DNA from: Candidatus Marinacidobacterium sp.
Lineage (GTDB): Bacteria; Acidobacteriota; Vicinamibacteria; Marinacidobacterales; Marinacidobacteraceae
Assembly (NCBI GenBank): GCA_965202845.1
Contig: OZ241856.1
Span: forward strand, 1,155,886-1,219,885
Length of the DNA: 64,000 nt
Direction of reading: 5' to 3'
Program-made: the position numbers and the translations under genes
Notes under the pieces: generated by a model
Seen by the model: only the letters and a program-made list of their open reading frames with translations
Told to the model about the DNA's origin: nothing
Databases searched by the model: none
Part shown: positions 38,196-44,698 of the stretch, one piece after another
Position numbering within the stretch: the first letter of the stretch is position 1
Layout: the number at the start of each line of letters is the position of its first letter

Positions 38196-40318
38196 ACATC
38201 CACCGCTTCGCCCCCATCCTGCTCGCTGTCGCGCTCGGTTGCGGCGGCTCGAACAACCCCACCACGGAGTCCATGTCGGAAAACCCTCTCCTCACCGAAA
38301 GCGCGCTGTTGCATCGCCTGCCGCCGTTCGACCGGATCCGGGACGAGCACTACCTCCCGGCGTTCGAGCGGGGCATGGCCGAGGACCTCGCCGAAGCGGA
38401 GCGGATCGCCGCGCTCGACGAGCCGCCCACCTTCGAGAACACGATCACGCCGATGGAGAGCGGTTCGCCGCTGCTGTCCCGGGTCTCGCGGGTGTTCTTC
38501 GGCCTTTCGTCGGCGCACACCAACGACGCCATGAACGCGATCCGGGAGGAGATCTCGCCGAAGCTCGCCGCCCACGCCGACCGCATCCTGCTGAACCCGG
38601 ACCTGTTCGCACGGGTCCGGGCCCTCCACGACGCCCGGCATGACAGCGGCCTCGACGCCGAGCAGGTCCGGCTGGTCGAGGAATACCACCGGAACTTCAT
38701 CCGCGCGGGCGCCAATCTCTCCGAGGAGCAGAAGGAGCGGATGCGCGCAATCAACTCCCGCCTCGCCTCGCTCGGCGCTTCCTTCACCCGGAATGTTCTG
38801 GATGAAGTGAACGCCTCGGCGGTGGTGGTGGACACCGAGGCGGAACTTGACGGACTGGACGAAGGCGAAATCGCCGCCGCCGCCGAAGCCGCCAGGGCCC
38901 GGGATCTGGAAGGCAAGTTCGTGATTCCGTTGCTGAACACCAGCGGCCAACCGGCGCTTGCGAGCCTCACCGACCGGGACCTTCGCGAGCGGATCCTGCG
39001 CGCCTCGCTCGCCCGCGGCAGCAGCGGCGGCGAGTATGACAACCGGGAGATCATCACCGAAATCGCCCGACTCCGGGCGGAGCGGGCGGCCCTGCTCGGC
39101 TATCCGCATCACGCGGCGTTCGTTCTGGAGGAGCAGACGGCCGGCACGGTGGAGGCGGTTCACGAGCGGCTGGCGGCGCTCACCCCGGCGGCGGTCCGGA
39201 ACGCCCGCCGGGAGGCGGCCGCATTGGAACGGGCAGCCCGCGCCGAGGGAGCGGACATCGAGATCGCCGCCTGGGACTGGCAGTTCTACACCGAGAAGCT
39301 GCGCGCCGAGCTCTACGACTTCGACGCCGCGGCGCTCCGCCCCTACTTCGAGCTGCACAGCGTGCTGGAAAACGGCGTGTTCCACGCGGCGAACCTGCTT
39401 TTCGGGCTGACCTTCGAGGAGCGGCCGGAGCTGCCGACCTACCAGGAGGACGTGCGGATCTGGGAAGTCTTCGACCACGACGGCTCTTCGCTCGGGCTTT
39501 TTCTCGGCGACTTCCACGCCCGCCCGTCCAAGCGCGGCGGCGCCTGGATGAACGCCTACGTTCCGCAGTCGGGGCTTTTGGGGACTCGTCCGGTGGTGGC
39601 GAACCATCTCAACATTCCCGAGCCGCCGGAGGGCGAGCCGACCCTGATGACCTTCGACGAGGTCATCACCCTGTTCCACGAGTTCGGGCACGCCCTGCAC
39701 GGGCTGTTTTCGGATGTGCGCTACCCGACCTTCGCCGGCACTTCGGTTCCCCGCGACTTCGTGGAGTTCCCCTCCCAGGTGAACGAGATGTGGGCGACCT
39801 GGCCGGAAGTGCTCCGCAACTACGCAGTGCACTACCAGACCGGCGAGCCGATCCCCGGCGACCTGCTGGAGCGGGTGCTGGAGAGCCAGACCTTCAACCA
39901 GGGGTTCGCCACCACCGAATACCTGGCCGCCACCCTGCTGGACCTGGCGTGGCACGAACGGGCGGTCTCCGAAATCCCGACCGCCGAGCAGGCGATCGCC
40001 TTCGAGGAGAACGCGCTGGAAGCCGCCGGAGTCGCGTTTCCGCCGACGCCTCCCCGCTACCGCAGCACGTACTTCTCCCACATCTGGGGAAGCGGCTATT
40101 CCGCCGGGTACTACTCGTACATCTGGAGCGAGGTGCTGGACGCCGACAGCGTGGAGTGGTTCCGCGAGAACGGCGGCCCCACCCGCGAAAACGGGGACCA
40201 CTTCCGGGCGACCCTGCTCTCCAGGGGCGGATCGGTGGATGCGATGGAGCTGTTCCGCGCCTTCCGCGGCCGCGACGCCGACATCGCCCCGCTGCTGAAG
40301 CGCCGGGGACTGGAGTAG
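38192..40318 (+). CDS. M3 family metallopeptidase (peptidyl-dipeptidase Dcp / oligopeptidase A-like), lipoprotein
   Basis: AAGGAG RBS before the ATG. Lipobox LAVALGCGG. HEFGH zinc motif. Overall M3A architecture. Confidence 0.85.
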   Translation: MNIHRFAPILLAVALGCGGSNNPTTESMSENPLLTESALLHRLPPFDRIRDEHYLPAFERGMAEDLAEAERIAALDEPPTFENTITPMESGSPLLSRVSRVFFGLSSAHTNDAMNAIREEISPKLAAHADRILLNPDLFARVRALHDARHDSGLDAEQVRLVEEYHRNFIRAGANLSEEQKERMRAINSRLASLGASFTRNVLDEVNASAVVVDTEAELDGLDEGEIAAAAEAARARDLEGKFVIPLLNTSGQPALASLTDRDLRERILRASLARGSSGGEYDNREIITEIARLRAERAALLGYPHHAAFVLEEQTAGTVEAVHERLAALTPAAVRNARREAAALERAARAEGADIEIAAWDWQFYTEKLRAELYDFDAAALRPYFELHSVLENGVFHAANLLFGLTFEERPELPTYQEDVRIWEVFDHDGSSLGLFLGDFHARPSKRGGAWMNAYVPQSGLLGTRPVVANHLNIPEPPEGEPTLMTFDEVITLFHEFGHALHGLFSDVRYPTFAGTSVPRDFVEFPSQVNEMWATWPEVLRNYAVHYQTGEPIPGDLLERVLESQTFNQGFATTEYLAATLLDLAWHERAVSEIPTAEQAIAFEENALEAAGVAFPPTPPRYRSTYFSHIWGSGYSAGYYSYIWSEVLDADSVEWFRENGGPTRENGDHFRATLLSRGGSVDAMELFRAFRGRDADIAPLLKRRGLE

Positions 40319-40329
40319 TCGTACGATTC

Positions 40330-42062
40330 ATGCACGCCCAACCGATAGAATTCCTGAAGCTGCTGAAAGGCGAGCTTCAGTACGTTGTGCCGCGCTGGCA
40401 GCGTCGCTATTGCTGGCGGCATACGGAAATCGAACGGCTGGTCGAGGACCTGCTGGCGATTGCTGACGCAGGTCCGGAAGCCGTACACTACGCAGGCAAT
40501 CTCCTGACGTTCGAGGAAACGGGCGCCGCCGGTGTGCTCAGCACGATCCGCGTCGTCGATGGCCAGCAGCGGCTCACCACGGTAAGCATTCTGATCGAAT
40601 GTATCGCTCAAAAACTCGGTGAGAATGGGCAATGTGGCGATTGGACTCCGAGGATTCTTCGCAATCGTCTTGTCAACCCTGATTGGGAGGATTACAAACG
40701 CATCAAGATTCGACTCCAGGACGGCGATGATGCGGAATACCGTAGCGGCATGGAAGGAAGAAATCCTTCCGGAACCGGAGCCGTCGTCCAAGCATGGAAG
40801 AAAGTGCGAAGCATGGTGGAGCGTACTGACACAACCCGCCTGCTACGGGGACTCGAGCGGCTCCGGGTAGTCAGCATCGGCCTTGACCACACCGACGATC
40901 CGCAGCAGGTTTTCGAGAGTCTGAACGCCACCGGACGCCCGCTCACCGAGAGTGAAAAGGTCAAGAACTGGCTGTTGATGGGTCTCCCGGAGGAGAAGCA
41001 ACAGCAGCTCCACGATGGTCATTGGCGCACAATCGTAGAGGCGCTTGGCGCCGAACACACGACCGAACCCATAGACCATTTTCTCCGGGATGTGATGCGC
41101 TGGCGGACTGGAGAAATGCGCGGCGGCGACAAGACCTACGAACAGCTTCGGCGCTGGGCGCTGAAAGAGAAGCAAGAAGATCGTCCGGCGCTTCTGGCCG
41201 ATTTGGCCCGACTCGCCAAACTCTATGGAATTCTGACCGGGCCACAAAAACACTCCCAAAAGAAAGTGGAAAGGGAAATCCGGCATCTTCGGTATCTCGG
41301 CCTGAATGTCCACCGTCCGTTGAGCTTGCGAATCCTTCACGATGCGAAAACAAATGCATCGGGGATATCCAGCCAGGAATTAGCGAAAATCTTCGCGGGA
41401 ATCGGAACCTGGATCACGCGCCTCTGGCTGGCGGACCGACCGACGACGGGCATGAACAAGGCTGCCGCCGAGCTCGCGCACAGCGAAGGACTGGGCGTCG
41501 GAGAGGACCCCGTGGAGCACTGGTTGCATCGAATCCGCCGACTCCGCAATCAGCATACCGGCGTTCCGAACGACGAAGAGGTTCGGGAAGGCGTTCGCAC
41601 GCGGAACGCCTACGGAGGCGGCGCCAACAGGCCCGCCTTCGCTGTTCTGTGCGCATTGATGGACGCGCAAAACCTGGGTGACGAAATGCTGGATCGCGAT
41701 CCACTCCAGATTGAACACGTGATGCCGCAGAAGTTGACGGAAACATGGAGGCATGATCTCGGTGAAAATGCGGATGAAGTCCATGCGCAACTTCGCAACC
41801 GGCTCGCGAATCTGACTCTGATCGGAGAAGGCGAAAATCCCGGCTTGGGAGCAAGACCGTTTTCGGACAAAAAGAAGGTTTACAAAGAGAGTTCCATCAA
41901 GATGACGCAGCAGCTCGCAAATGAAGAAAAATGGGACGAAGCGACAATCTTGCGACGCGCGGATTCTCTAGCCGACCAGGCGCTTGCGCTGTGGCCCTGG
42001 ACCGACCAACGAACTCCGCCCGCCGAGAAGCAGGACGCTTCCGGATTCCGATGGAAAATTGA
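40330..42062 (+). pseudogene. GmrSD-like type IV restriction endonuclease (DUF262 + DUF1524), 5' portion, interrupted at 42062/42063 by an ISL3 insertion
   Basis: DUF262 motif ...VVDGQQRLTTVSILIE. DUF1524/HNH-like motif ...PLQIEHVMPQKL...W...H...NLTLIGEGEN...FSDKKKVY. GC is lower than the flanks. The ORF then reads without a stop into IS antisense sequence. Confidence 0.7.
42055..42062. repeat. target-site duplication AAAATTGA (left copy)
   Basis: Identical 8-mer immediately flanks both IS ends. Confidence 0.8.
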
Positions 42063-43530
42063 GGCTCTTTCAAATACCGAGTGGGTACGCGACATGAGGG
42101 TTGAGCTTGGAGAAGTCCAGTTTTCCGGCGATGAGGAAGAACACGGTGCGGATGGTCTGGAAGGTTCCGTAGCCTCTGGCTTTCCGCTTGGCCGCCTGAA
42201 ACAGGCCGTTGAGCGCCTCGATGAAGCCGTTGGTCTGGCGGGTTCGGGCCCACGCGACGATGCCCTCGAGATGTTTGCGGATCATCCGCGCGACGGCTTT
42301 CATGGGTTCGACCTTGGAGCGGTTCACGTTGGCGCACCACTGCCGGAGCATGGCTCTGACGACGTTGACCTGCTTGCGGTTGAGGATGTTCCGGAGTTGC
42401 TCGCGGTACATCCAGGCTCGGGCGGTGCGCTTTCCGGGGGCCTGCGCGATGAGAGCGTTGAGTTGGGCGCGCTGTTCGGGGCCGAGTCGTTCGGGATTTT
42501 TGAGGAGCGCCCAGCGCATGCCCTTGAGTTGGGGGTTGGCGCGCTGCTCGATGCGCCGGGTCTGGTCGAGGGCCTTGGATGCGTGAGCGATGACGTGGAA
42601 TTTGTCGAAGGTGATCTGGGCGTTGGGGAGATGCTCTGCGACGCCCTTCATGTAGGCGGGGGACATGTCGATGGAGGCGACTTCGACGGCTTCGGGGTCT
42701 CCGCCGTGGGCTTCGAGGCTTCGGGCGAATCGGTCGACGGAGTCGGCGGCGCGGCCTTCTCCGACGAAGATGACCCGGCGTTTTCGGGCGTCTGCGACGA
42801 CGGTGACGTAGTTGTGGCCGCGCGCGCGGGAGGTTTCGTCGATGGCGACGGCGCGGACGTCGGCTTGGTCGTCGGTTTCGGTGGCGAGTTCCACATAGCG
42901 GTTGGAGATGGCCTGGGTTTGGTGCTGGGAGAGTCCGGCGAGCCGTGCGACGGCGGCGAAGGTCATGTCCTGGCACATGGCGAGAATCAAGGCTTCGAAG
43001 AGGAGGGAGAACCCGGAGAGCTTGCCGGCCCAGGGCGGCGAGACCAGCGCGACCTTGCCGTTGGGGAGGCGCACCCGGGGGACGCGCGCCACCAGTTCGC
43101 ACTCGAATTGGAAGAAGTTGAGGTGGCGGAAGCGCTTGGTCTTGGTGTCGTGGACCGGATGGAGGCCGTCGTGGTTCTGGTGGGCGAAGCGGGCGCCCCT
43201 GCGGAAATCGACGCGGATGCTCAGCTTTCCTTGGTCCTTGTCGAATTCCACGTTCTCGACGAACCAGGGGTCCGGGATGCCGAGGGCTTGGGCGAAAAGC
43301 TCGTGTAGCACTGGATGCGCTCCTTTTTTTCAGGGTCGAAAGCGGGAAAAGTGTTCCATTGGTGTGTGGCGACGCTGGCTGGGGACGGTTGCGGCTTCCC
43401 GCTTTCGACCCTTTTTCGAGCGTGCCCGCCGGATTCCGTGAGTCAAGGGTTCGCTACGCCGTGCAAGCCCGCCCTTGACACCCGGAATCCCGGCGGTCTC
43501 CATTCTACCCACTCAAATCTCAATTGAGGC
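42063..43530 (-). mobile_element. ISL3-family insertion sequence (about 1.47 kb)
   Basis: Left terminal inverted repeat GGCTCTTTCAAATACCGAGTGGGTA. Right terminal inverted repeat ...CTACCCACTCAAATCTCAATTGAGGC (imperfect; they share the GAGTGGGTAG core). Single transposase ORF. 8-bp TSD. Confidence 0.8.
42070..43311 (-). CDS. ISL3 family transposase
   Basis: 413 aa with typical ISL3 transposase sequence (...ASIDMSPAYMKGV...DKFHV...). DDE-type. Confidence 0.9.
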   Translation of the reverse strand: MLHELFAQALGIPDPWFVENVEFDKDQGKLSIRVDFRRGARFAHQNHDGLHPVHDTKTKRFRHLNFFQFECELVARVPRVRLPNGKVALVSPPWAGKLSGFSLLFEALILAMCQDMTFAAVARLAGLSQHQTQAISNRYVELATETDDQADVRAVAIDETSRARGHNYVTVVADARKRRVIFVGEGRAADSVDRFARSLEAHGGDPEAVEVASIDMSPAYMKGVAEHLPNAQITFDKFHVIAHASKALDQTRRIEQRANPQLKGMRWALLKNPERLGPEQRAQLNALIAQAPGKRTARAWMYREQLRNILNRKQVNVVRAMLRQWCANVNRSKVEPMKAVARMIRKHLEGIVAWARTRQTNGFIEALNGLFQAAKRKARGYGTFQTIRTVFFLIAGKLDFSKLNPHVAYPLGI

Positions 43531-43538
43531 AAAATTGA
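43531..43538. repeat. target-site duplication AAAATTGA (right copy)
   Basis: Matches 42055-42062 exactly. Confidence 0.8.
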
Positions 43539-44289
43539 AGACGGTCCATGGAATTCCGAAAAAGAAGGAAGCAAGATGGTTCTCAATGTGACCGGTGCGC
43601 TCCTGGATCTGAATTCTGAAAATTTCAAGCATTTGCGCGGCGATGCGATCAGCGCCAACATTCACCCAACAAGCACCTATTCTTCTGGAAGCACAGTTCA
43701 GTCCCTGAAAATGTTCGCCGTCCCAAGACACACTGATTGGGTAATGTATCCGTACGAAAGAAACTATCCGGCCTATGCGAAACGATGCCACAGTCTGGGT
43801 GAACGATGCGGAATCAATCTCCAAGTCGAAATCATTTCGGACCGGGCCGAGATCACCGAAGCCTTCTGGAAACACCTCATGGAAGTTCATGGCGGCGTCC
43901 CCGGACAGCAGGCGCAATGGCGAGGCAGAAGCCAGAAGACGAAACCTTGCAATTCCCATGGAGACCGCGTTGGAATTGGACTCGGCGAAGACCATATTCT
44001 GATCTACATTCGTGGACGTTCGAAAAATCACGTGACACGAAAAAGAGTTTTCCGTTTTTCACAGATCATGCATGAGGAAATGACGGATCAGTCCATATTG
44101 GGAAATTTGGAAAAAGAGAGCGAAGCTGGCAGGAGTGTTTGGGTCCAGCACGACTGGACACGAGAAGACAGGGACGGTTGGGATGAGGCATGTCGGTGGA
44201 TTCTGGATCAATATGAAAGACTGTGGATGATCTCGCGACGCCCCGATCATGGAGATGGGGAAACGTCTGATCCGGATCGAGAGGTTTGA
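43539..44289 (+). pseudogene. 3' portion of the IS-disrupted GmrSD-like gene: a C-terminal domain of unknown function of about 250 aa
   Basis: After conceptual excision of the IS plus one TSD copy, frame +1 continues without a stop from 40330 to 44289 (828 aa). An internal AAGGAAG-N5-ATG at 43576 could allow separate expression. Confidence 0.5.
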
Positions 44290-44326
44290 AGTCCTTGATT
44301 CAAGGGGCATCAAGGCACCCGGGAAA

Positions 44327-44698
44327 CTACGTGGGGGGATTGCGATTCCCTATCGCGGTCACGAGCCGGGGAATGGCGGCGACTCCGATACCACCGGCGA
44401 GAATCCCCGCCACAGTCGTATGGCCAATCCAGGCGAGGAAAACAACAGCCACCAGGATGCCAAACCACACGACGACGCCCAGGCTGGTCTCGCGCATTTC
44501 GAGCCGGGAAGCGTGCGCCTCGATCTCATGTCTCGCCGCCTGTTCCGATTCGCCCGTTGCGAAAATCCGCTCGGCGGCGCCGGGGAGCATGCGTTCGTAA
44601 TGCTCGAAATGGGACGGCGGAGGAAGCGGCCCGCTGCGCATGGACAGTCGAGGCGGCGGGAGCCCCATCGATTCCTGAATCGCGCGTTCGTGTTCCAT
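44327..44698 (-). CDS. DUF2335-like small membrane protein
   Basis: N-terminal conserved-looking block PPPSHFEHYERMLPGAAERIFATGESEQAARHE, then two C-terminal TM helices. Lower GC. Confidence 0.45.
   Translation of the reverse strand: MEHERAIQESMGLPPPRLSMRSGPLPPPSHFEHYERMLPGAAERIFATGESEQAARHEIEAHASRLEMRETSLGVVVWFGILVAVVFLAWIGHTTVAGILAGGIGVAAIPRLVTAIGNRNPPT

Follow-up and report, generated by a model that had tools for sequence, protein, structure and literature searches.

Positions 43539–44289 of the studied DNA (a stretch of 64,000 bp from Candidatus Marinacidobacterium sp., contig OZ241856.1, referred to below as the window) contain a long open frame immediately following an insertion sequence. 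Does this frame belong to the GmrSD-like gene that starts on the other side of the element, and what does it encode? An earlier note described it as an unusual C-terminal extension of that gene formed by a single unrecognised domain, possibly expressed on its own since the insertion.

The interrupted gene and its reconstruction

The GmrSD-like ORF starts at ATG 40330 on the plus strand and is interrupted at 42063 by an element of the ISL3 family. We excised this element together with one copy of the target-site duplication in silico, joining 40330–42062 to 43539–44289. The restored ORF has the length of 2484 nt (827 codons), contains 0 internal stops and ends with the TGA codon at 44287–44289; the window itself holds no single intact translatable ORF of this gene, its frame being restored only in silico. 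The 5' part (40330–42062, plus strand), delimited using Pfam, PADLOC and the reconstruction, comprises codons 1–577 plus 2 nt and encodes the GmrSD_N/DUF262 and GmrSD_C/DUF1524 domains, a linker, and the strand β1 (FRWKI) of a domain referred to below as module A. On the same strand downstream of the element, the rest of module A, modelled as a SeqA-C-like α/β domain, occupies 43539–43836 (reconstructed residues ~578–677), and module B, a divergent DUF4268, occupies 43837–44244 (residues ~678–813). They are followed by an acidic C-terminal tail (PDHGDGETSDPDREV) and the stop codon (44245–44289); the acidic tail is modelled with low confidence, with pLDDT of 56–77 in the last two 10-residue blocks. 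The reconstruction bears out the roughly 250 further codons without a stop reported earlier. The extension covers residues ~573–827, and the previous numbering (579–828) was essentially right, the codon of D579 being located at 43540. The chance of 249 codons staying open at the local composition is ~3e-6, in agreement with the claim that a chance frame of this length is extremely unlikely.

The element (42063–43530, minus strand) is 1468 bp long. Its transposase ORF (42070–43311, minus strand, 413 aa) matches NCBIfam transpos_ISL3 (NF033550, E 2e-94) and Pfam DDE_Tnp_ISL3 (PF01610, E 2e-67). The ends are formed by imperfect 25-bp terminal inverted repeats (GGCTCTTTCAAATACCGAGTGGGTA / GCCTCAATTGAGATTTGAGTGGGTA), and on either side lies one of two identical direct copies of the 8-bp sequence AAAATTGA, at 42055–42062 on the left and at 43531–43538 on the right; the repeat spacing of 1476 equals 1468 + 8. 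The ISL3-type DDE transposase, terminal inverted repeats and 8-bp target duplication assign it to the ISL3 family, and it shows ~70% nucleotide identity to ISAe1-like ISL3 elements in an alignment starting from element base 1. The window contains one copy, with the GC content of 62–66%. The part of the element from the transposase start to its right end contains two strong inverted repeats, 43332–43412 and 43431–43490 (17-nt arms with 100% identity and a 47-nt loop, and 19-nt arms with 89% identity, respectively), which might serve in regulation or in binding of the transposase. The insertion site lies after codon 577, between β1 (FRWKI) and the remainder of module A. Given that the 8-bp duplication is intact, this was a simple insertion with no deletion, and since the duplication is perfect and the family-invariant residues are intact in both halves of the gene, the insertion is recent.

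In the restored protein, the ParB/Srx-like domain GmrSD_N/DUF262 (PF03235) is found at residues 10–216 (E 1.3e-26) with its DGQQR motif (VVDGQQRLTT), and GmrSD_C/DUF1524 (PF07510) at residues 413–549 (E 3.8e-24). Among the PADLOC models, Orf5 (PDLC02693) matches residues 11–555 with E 4e-102, and HEC-06 matches with E 8.5e-57. Judged by sequence, the gene is best explained as encoding a stand-alone nuclease of the GmrSD family, a modification-dependent enzyme of type IV that combines a DUF262 NTPase with a DUF1524 His-Me finger. Orf5 (543 aa) and HEC-06 (~560 aa), the closest PADLOC models, stop where the core stops, and relative to them the extension is indeed unusual. For the family at large it is not: C-terminal additions to GmrSD proteins, namely DUF4268, DUF4357, DNA_binding_1 and AlbA_2, are documented (PMC4619093, PMC5714182), and DUF262-DUF1524-DUF4268 architectures were published in 2015 (Machnicka et al. 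2015; PMC4619093).

The gene is located in a patch (40300–44500) with 51–58% GC, compared to 68–72% in the flanks. Its ATG lies 11 nt after the stop codon of a Peptidase_M3 gene, and downstream there are a convergent gene for a DUF2335 membrane protein and then a Peptidase_S8 gene. The small DUF2335 gene (44327–44698, minus strand) is situated at the GC transition and could either be part of the acquired islet or lie outside it. The GmrSD gene thus looks like a single-gene, horizontally acquired low-GC islet. No methyltransferase gene adjoins it in the window, and no conserved neighbouring gene was found, the adjacent genes being different at each of the homologous loci examined. Such a setting is typical of solitary type IV-like enzymes.

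Homologues of the tail and its two domains

A word-indexed homology search with the tail retrieved only the tail itself and one homologue, and an exhaustive HMM search was needed. Performed against 1.84 billion cluster representatives (50% identity clustering), it yielded 139 relatives, 95 of them with E < 1e-10. No relatives were found in the phage and plasmid collections, and no NCBIfam model matches the tail. The tail family is rare, its known members being essentially limited to metagenomes.

Over the whole tail, the window protein shares 54% identity with P0002, a metagenome protein from locus L001. Its frame runs upstream to the contig end, into sequence matching the end of GmrSD_C, and the junction ...AFRWRIEDGPWHSE... 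is the exact counterpart of ...GFRWKIEDGPWNSE... in the reconstructed protein. Nucleotide differences from two homologues, L001 and L006, are distributed by codon position as 85/65/135 and 85/58/125, respectively, with an excess at the third position. This excess and the in-frame homologue P0002 confirm that the tail is real coding sequence, as the earlier note proposed. The minus-strand ORFs 43513–44031 and 44059–44313 were rejected as genes, given that they overlap the plus-strand frame conserved at the protein level.

GmrSD_C was identified in 27, and GmrSD_N in 22, of the 29 relatives with the length of at least 480 aa. Approximately 18 relatives are full or near-full-length proteins of ~820–940 aa, in which the tail is C-terminal and in frame, with no IS. 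In locus L003 a single 837-aa gene (P0007) lies between gcpE and tatC on a 5.8-Mb contig, and in L006, a Gammaproteobacteria MAG that provided the sole match in the species-representative genome collection, the ORF is continuous and encodes 874 aa.

These data bear on an alternative explanation, according to which core and tail are normally two genes, the tail lying downstream, and look fused only because the IS removed a stop codon or an intergenic region. Locus L002, on another metagenome contig, could be taken to favour it, as a 577-aa GmrSD ORF is followed there by a separately called ORF of 224 aa (P0011). However, both ORFs are in the same frame and are split only by an in-frame TAG (in the region 5940–6003 of L002), which stands in place of the conserved RWRI-motif Trp and inactivates the gene; for this reason gene callers annotate the tail as a separate protein. 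This is the only split among the homologues examined. Hence L002 was rejected as a natural two-gene form. The nonsense codon in L002 falls at the same domain boundary as the IS in the window. Further, the ~18 full-length fused proteins and the continuous frames of L001, L003 and L006 contradict a separate gene, and the intact 8-bp duplication indicates a simple insertion that deleted nothing. Since the homologues are fused, this explanation is already refuted, and we give it hardly any credence. The fusion of the core and the tail is ancestral, and the segment 43539–44289 is the real 3' end (the 3' quarter) of one ancestral 827-codon GmrSD-type gene split by the IS. The earlier note suggested surveying related cores for this same module and named a normally separate downstream gene as contrary evidence; the homologues carry the module on their cores.

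The tail was previously treated as a single domain; it consists of two autonomous domains that are shuffled independently. Module A corresponds to profile positions 1–105, with the consensus RWRI..G.W..E..A..MVLNVA.ALLSLDP.NA.RL.G...H.AS.YP...VPGH..YV.YPY....SA.RCR..G.RCGV.VEVE., and module B (~135 aa) to positions 106–245, with the consensus FW..L....GG.PGQ...WRG..Q.T...N..GD.IGI......LY.R......R..RM...S..I...M.DQ.L.......GRS..V.R.W...DE..W.EAA.WI.DQ..RL..I. We counted domain arrangements in 140 family sequences (the 139 representatives and P0002). Module B alone is the most frequent (64 sequences), followed by A-B (48) and A alone (22); B-B was observed three times, A-A twice, and five copies of B once. 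The group with B alone includes both GmrSD-B proteins (P0031, P0056) and stand-alone proteins of ~145 aa (P0034, P0060, P0076), whereas the group with A alone includes GmrSD-A proteins ending after module A (P0078, P0140).

Several proteins have less common arrangements. In P0073 (489 aa) module B is N-terminal to a DUF262-only protein, and in P0095 and P0105 two tandem copies of module A follow the GmrSD core. P0004 (693 aa) contains five tandem copies of module B and no nuclease domain. In P0036 the A-B tail is followed by a canonical DUF4268 (E 3.6e-25).

Relationships of modules A and B

The earlier note recommended structure prediction for the tail. An AF2 model of the whole tail, built using a 30-sequence alignment, has pLDDT 92.6; that of isolated module A, including β1 encoded upstream of the IS, has pLDDT 94.3 and pTM 0.87. 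The order of secondary structure elements in module A, starting from 43539, is β2, helix, helix, β-strand, β-hairpin (VPRH..WVMYPY), helix (KRC...ERC) and β-strand. The residues W, G, V, L, L, P and C hardly vary, and the family has its own conserved features, namely a His, VPGH, YPY and a Cys pair.

For the model of module A, the strong fold matches are SeqA-C and SLED only, both of them DNA-binding domains, and the comparison of the model with SeqA-C indicates that module A has the fold of the SeqA C-terminal domain. In a Foldseek search against PDB, SeqA was absent from the best 50 matches, none of which had E < 1e-3. We then considered similarity at the sequence level. Searching Pfam with 44 module-A sequences at E <= 10 produced no consistent family match and no SeqA (PF03925), so a significant sequence match to the latter is lacking; neither the tail nor module A matched any PDB sequence in HMM searches; and the module A profile had 0 matches at E <= 1e-3 in a 5.8-billion-protein database, in which the known members were likewise missed, so that we give this result no weight. 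With one SeqA sequence, or several almost identical ones, as the target, hhalign aligned just the hairpin motif (VPG..yWVI), and not significantly.

A more diverse SeqA-C profile was therefore compiled. The SeqA-C search gave 120 near-identical enterobacterial sequences, and the metagenome scan, 80 identical E. coli loci; the diversity was taken from plasmid and chromid records. The profile includes seven sequences and one 20-residue fragment, from Escherichia, Vibrio, Klebsiella, Proteus, Arsenophonus, Aeromonas and Shewanella. These records include a seqA-pgm pair (NC_009035.1, 34278–34820) on the 117-kb plasmid pSbal01 of Shewanella baltica, with 35% identity to E. coli SeqA-C, and a SeqA-like fragment (CP043024.1, 6078–6347) on a 29-kb plasmid of E. 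coli. Against this profile hhalign aligned 74–77 collinear columns over the structural core, with the score of 22.0–22.5, P 0.003 and probability < 10%. In a control with the fragment dropped and 200 shuffles of the SeqA profile columns, the mean score was 11.7 (sd 2.5, maximum 20.3), 0 of 200 reaching the observed value; the reversed SeqA profile scored 10.8. Module A is likely, though not proven, to be a remote homologue of the SeqA C-terminal domain.

The C-terminal domain of SeqA binds hemimethylated GATC. Its contacts with DNA and m6A in the SeqA-DNA structures, R116–R118, N150 and N152 of the E. coli protein, are paired with non-basic residues and with a Pro or variable position of YPY in module A, although this pairing comes from the low-confidence hhalign alignment and is provisional. 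As these contacts are not kept, the specificity of module A would differ from that of SeqA, and reading of GATC/m6A should not be assumed. The mean net charge of module A is +2.1, and that of SeqA-C is +2. We found no description of the module A family or of a SeqA-GmrSD fusion in the literature; the SeqA-like module appears to be undescribed and new to domain databases. Fusions of SeqA domains with restriction-associated RAMA domains have been noted (Iyer, Zhang, Aravind 2016; PMC4738411), so a SeqA-type module in a restriction context has a precedent.

As for module B, the window protein scores 11.5–11.9 bits with DUF4268 (PF14088; E 0.24–0.32), below the gathering threshold of 27 bits. Among 55 relatives with module B, DUF4268 is found at E <= 1 in 22, and each other non-GmrSD family, in at most one. 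The matches are collinear over nearly the whole profile, e.g. positions 4–137 of 140 in P0076 (E 5e-4) and 5–136 of 140 in P0056, and P0004 exceeds the threshold with 32.7 bits. The collinear whole-profile match in relatives, the lack of a competing family and the association with DUF262/DUF1524 identify module B, at the sequence level, as a divergent DUF4268 scoring below the threshold. The description of the tail as an unrecognised domain, an extra effector or sensor, hence stands in that the region is accessory and probably of the sensor type, but half of it is a divergent copy of a described domain. Modelled by AF2 as part of the whole tail, module B has the fold α-β3-α-β2-α and resembles type III secretion chaperones and YbjN-family proteins (Foldseek probability 0.97 for ExsC and 0.85 for YbjN, none significant by E-value). 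The predicted chaperone/YbjN-like fold would add structure-based information on DUF4268. The net charge of module B is acidic, −2.4. DNA binding has been predicted for DUF4268 (PMC5714182); the domain occurs in the nucleases MdgA and MdgB, experimentally shown to be modification-dependent, where it is proposed to be a substrate-recognition element, and the HEC-06 relative of GmrSD has been validated as a defence system (bioRxiv 10.1101/2025.02.28.640651).

State of the gene, proposed function and known relatives

The upstream GmrSD frame continues past the junction and crosses the entire antisense IS strand without a stop, as far as 43308 (ORF 39790–43308, plus strand), and the predicted core product is a chimera of ~992 aa, consisting of the 577-aa core and ~415 nonsense residues from the antisense IS strand. 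Downstream of the element, the only possible start is ATG 43576, and public annotation has the ORF from this codon as P0001 (237 aa). Because the core continues into 415 codons of antisense IS sequence and because the orphan ORF is devoid of β1–β2 of module A, the insertion is expected to inactivate the enzyme, and the GmrSD gene is probably dead here.

It was suggested previously that the tail is now expressed alone, decoupled from the nuclease, from an AAGGAAG-N5-ATG start. The SD-like string (43565–43571, plus strand) and the ATG are there, with a spacer of 4 nt and not 5, the complete site ending at 43578. Besides this string, a free-standing tail would be consistent with the intact ORF, retaining all family-invariant residues within it, with the public annotation of P0001 and with the existence of the stand-alone ~145-aa module-B proteins. 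On the other hand, the Met is a conserved residue within helix 1 of module A, and a product starting from it lacks β1, β2 and the initial turn of helix 1, together with the nearly invariant Trp and Gly contained in them. The SD-like string is a by-product of the codons for E-K-E-G-S-K: at the same spacing L001 has GGGAG, whereas L002 and L006 have nothing SD-like. A scan of 43250–44450, covering promoters of the σ70 type, detected no σ70-like promoter or terminator, including between the IS and the ORF, and the adjoining IS end is the transposase upstream region, in the opposite orientation. Expression of the tail as a free-standing protein is thus improbable, and the suggestion remains unsupported; given the position of the Met and the missing strands of module A, independent functional expression would be possible only for module B. 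For annotation, the lesson is that a 237-aa hypothetical protein is a gene fragment made by an IS.

The best explanation of the locus as a whole, to which we assign a probability of about 0.6, is an IS-split type IV GmrSD nuclease whose tail combines a SeqA-like module A, docking on DNA or its modification, with a divergent DUF4268 as module B. According to this scenario, a low-GC single-gene island with an 827-codon GmrSD nuclease would have been acquired horizontally; module A would bring the nuclease to DNA, possibly reading a base modification; module B would help in substrate recognition or mediate dimerisation or regulation, as suggested by its fold, which is that of dimeric chaperones; and a recent ISL3 insertion after codon 577 split the gene. 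Recognition of DNA or its modification, along with substrate recognition or dimerisation, is the most likely role of the tail judging by the fold, the domain partners and published work on DUF4268. Against a DNA-reading role we count the fact that secretion chaperones and YbjN, to which module B is related in fold, bind proteins, not DNA, and the net acidic charge of this module.

The tail could instead be mainly regulatory, autoinhibitory or involved in oligomerisation, with module B dimerising or masking the nuclease until a trigger appears and module A serving as a structural adaptor. GmrSD relatives such as BrxU are controlled by switching between dimer and monomer. Module B is matched best in fold by obligate-dimer type III secretion chaperones and YbjN-family regulators; it is found in tandem arrays (B-B, and five copies in P0004) and is net acidic; and the DNA-contact residues of SeqA are not conserved in module A. 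At the same time, the only strong fold matches of module A are the DNA-binding SeqA-C and SLED, DUF4268 is predicted to be DNA-binding (PMC5714182), and its recurrence in unrelated modification-dependent nucleases fits substrate recognition better (bioRxiv 10.1101/2025.02.28.640651). We consider a mainly regulatory tail to be rather unlikely and retain recognition of DNA or its modification as the preferred role.

A more specific version of the latter, which we put forward tentatively and with the odds clearly below even, is that module A represents a new, Pfam-unannotated family of SeqA-related modification readers, setting the target specificity (e.g. methylated adenine) of a rare GmrSD subfamily. 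To our knowledge, GmrSD-type enzymes have no obvious counterparts of the SRA-, winged-helix- or YTH-like readers of other type IV enzymes. If the proposal is true, module A supplies the missing reader for a type IV class whose recognition of modifications is poorly understood, and extends the SeqA fold beyond gamma-proteobacterial replication control. A SeqA-fold cassette shuffled onto GmrSD cores (A, A-A, A-B) is a concrete, testable candidate for this role, and DUF4268 is now emerging in experimentally validated modification-dependent nucleases.

Comparison with known systems starts from the SeqA C-terminal domain (PF03925; PDB 1LRR, 3FMT, 3SK7). According to the model, module A shares with it the core fold helix-helix-strand-hairpin-helix; they also have collinear weak similarity, including the LxSLD helix, LxG and the (V/I)Pxx..WVI hairpin, and similar net charge. 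Module A differs in the absence of the SeqA N-terminal oligomerisation domain, in an extra N-terminal β-hairpin (RWRI..G.W) and an extra C-terminal strand, in non-conservation of the R116–R118 and N150/N152 contacts (in the provisional alignment), and in the family-specific His, VPGH, YPY and Cys pair; moreover, it is fused to a nuclease, whereas SeqA is a replication regulator. The RAMA and DUF4357 readers of ParB/HNH-type restriction nucleases follow the same logic, with a small putative modified-DNA reader attached to the enzyme, but have no detectable sequence relationship to the tail (no Pfam match to RAMA or DUF4357 even at E <= 10). With the DUF4268 domains of the MdgA/MdgB type, module B has in common the collinear profile matches of its relatives over the whole domain, the same partner domains, and the canonical copy directly following it in P0036, while the window copy scores only ~12 bits against the threshold of 27.

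The closest systems are GmrSD enzymes with C-terminal accessory domains, of the Orf5/HEC-06 type. The GmrSD_N and GmrSD_C core is common to them and the window gene, and so are the stand-alone single-gene setting in a low-GC islet and the C-terminal domain of the DUF4268 type. HEC-06 relatives act in modification-dependent phage defence. Compared to the known GmrSD-DUF4268 proteins, the window copy is interrupted by an IS, its DUF4268 is below the Pfam threshold, and an additional SeqA-like domain of ~105 aa is located between the core and the DUF4268-like domain.
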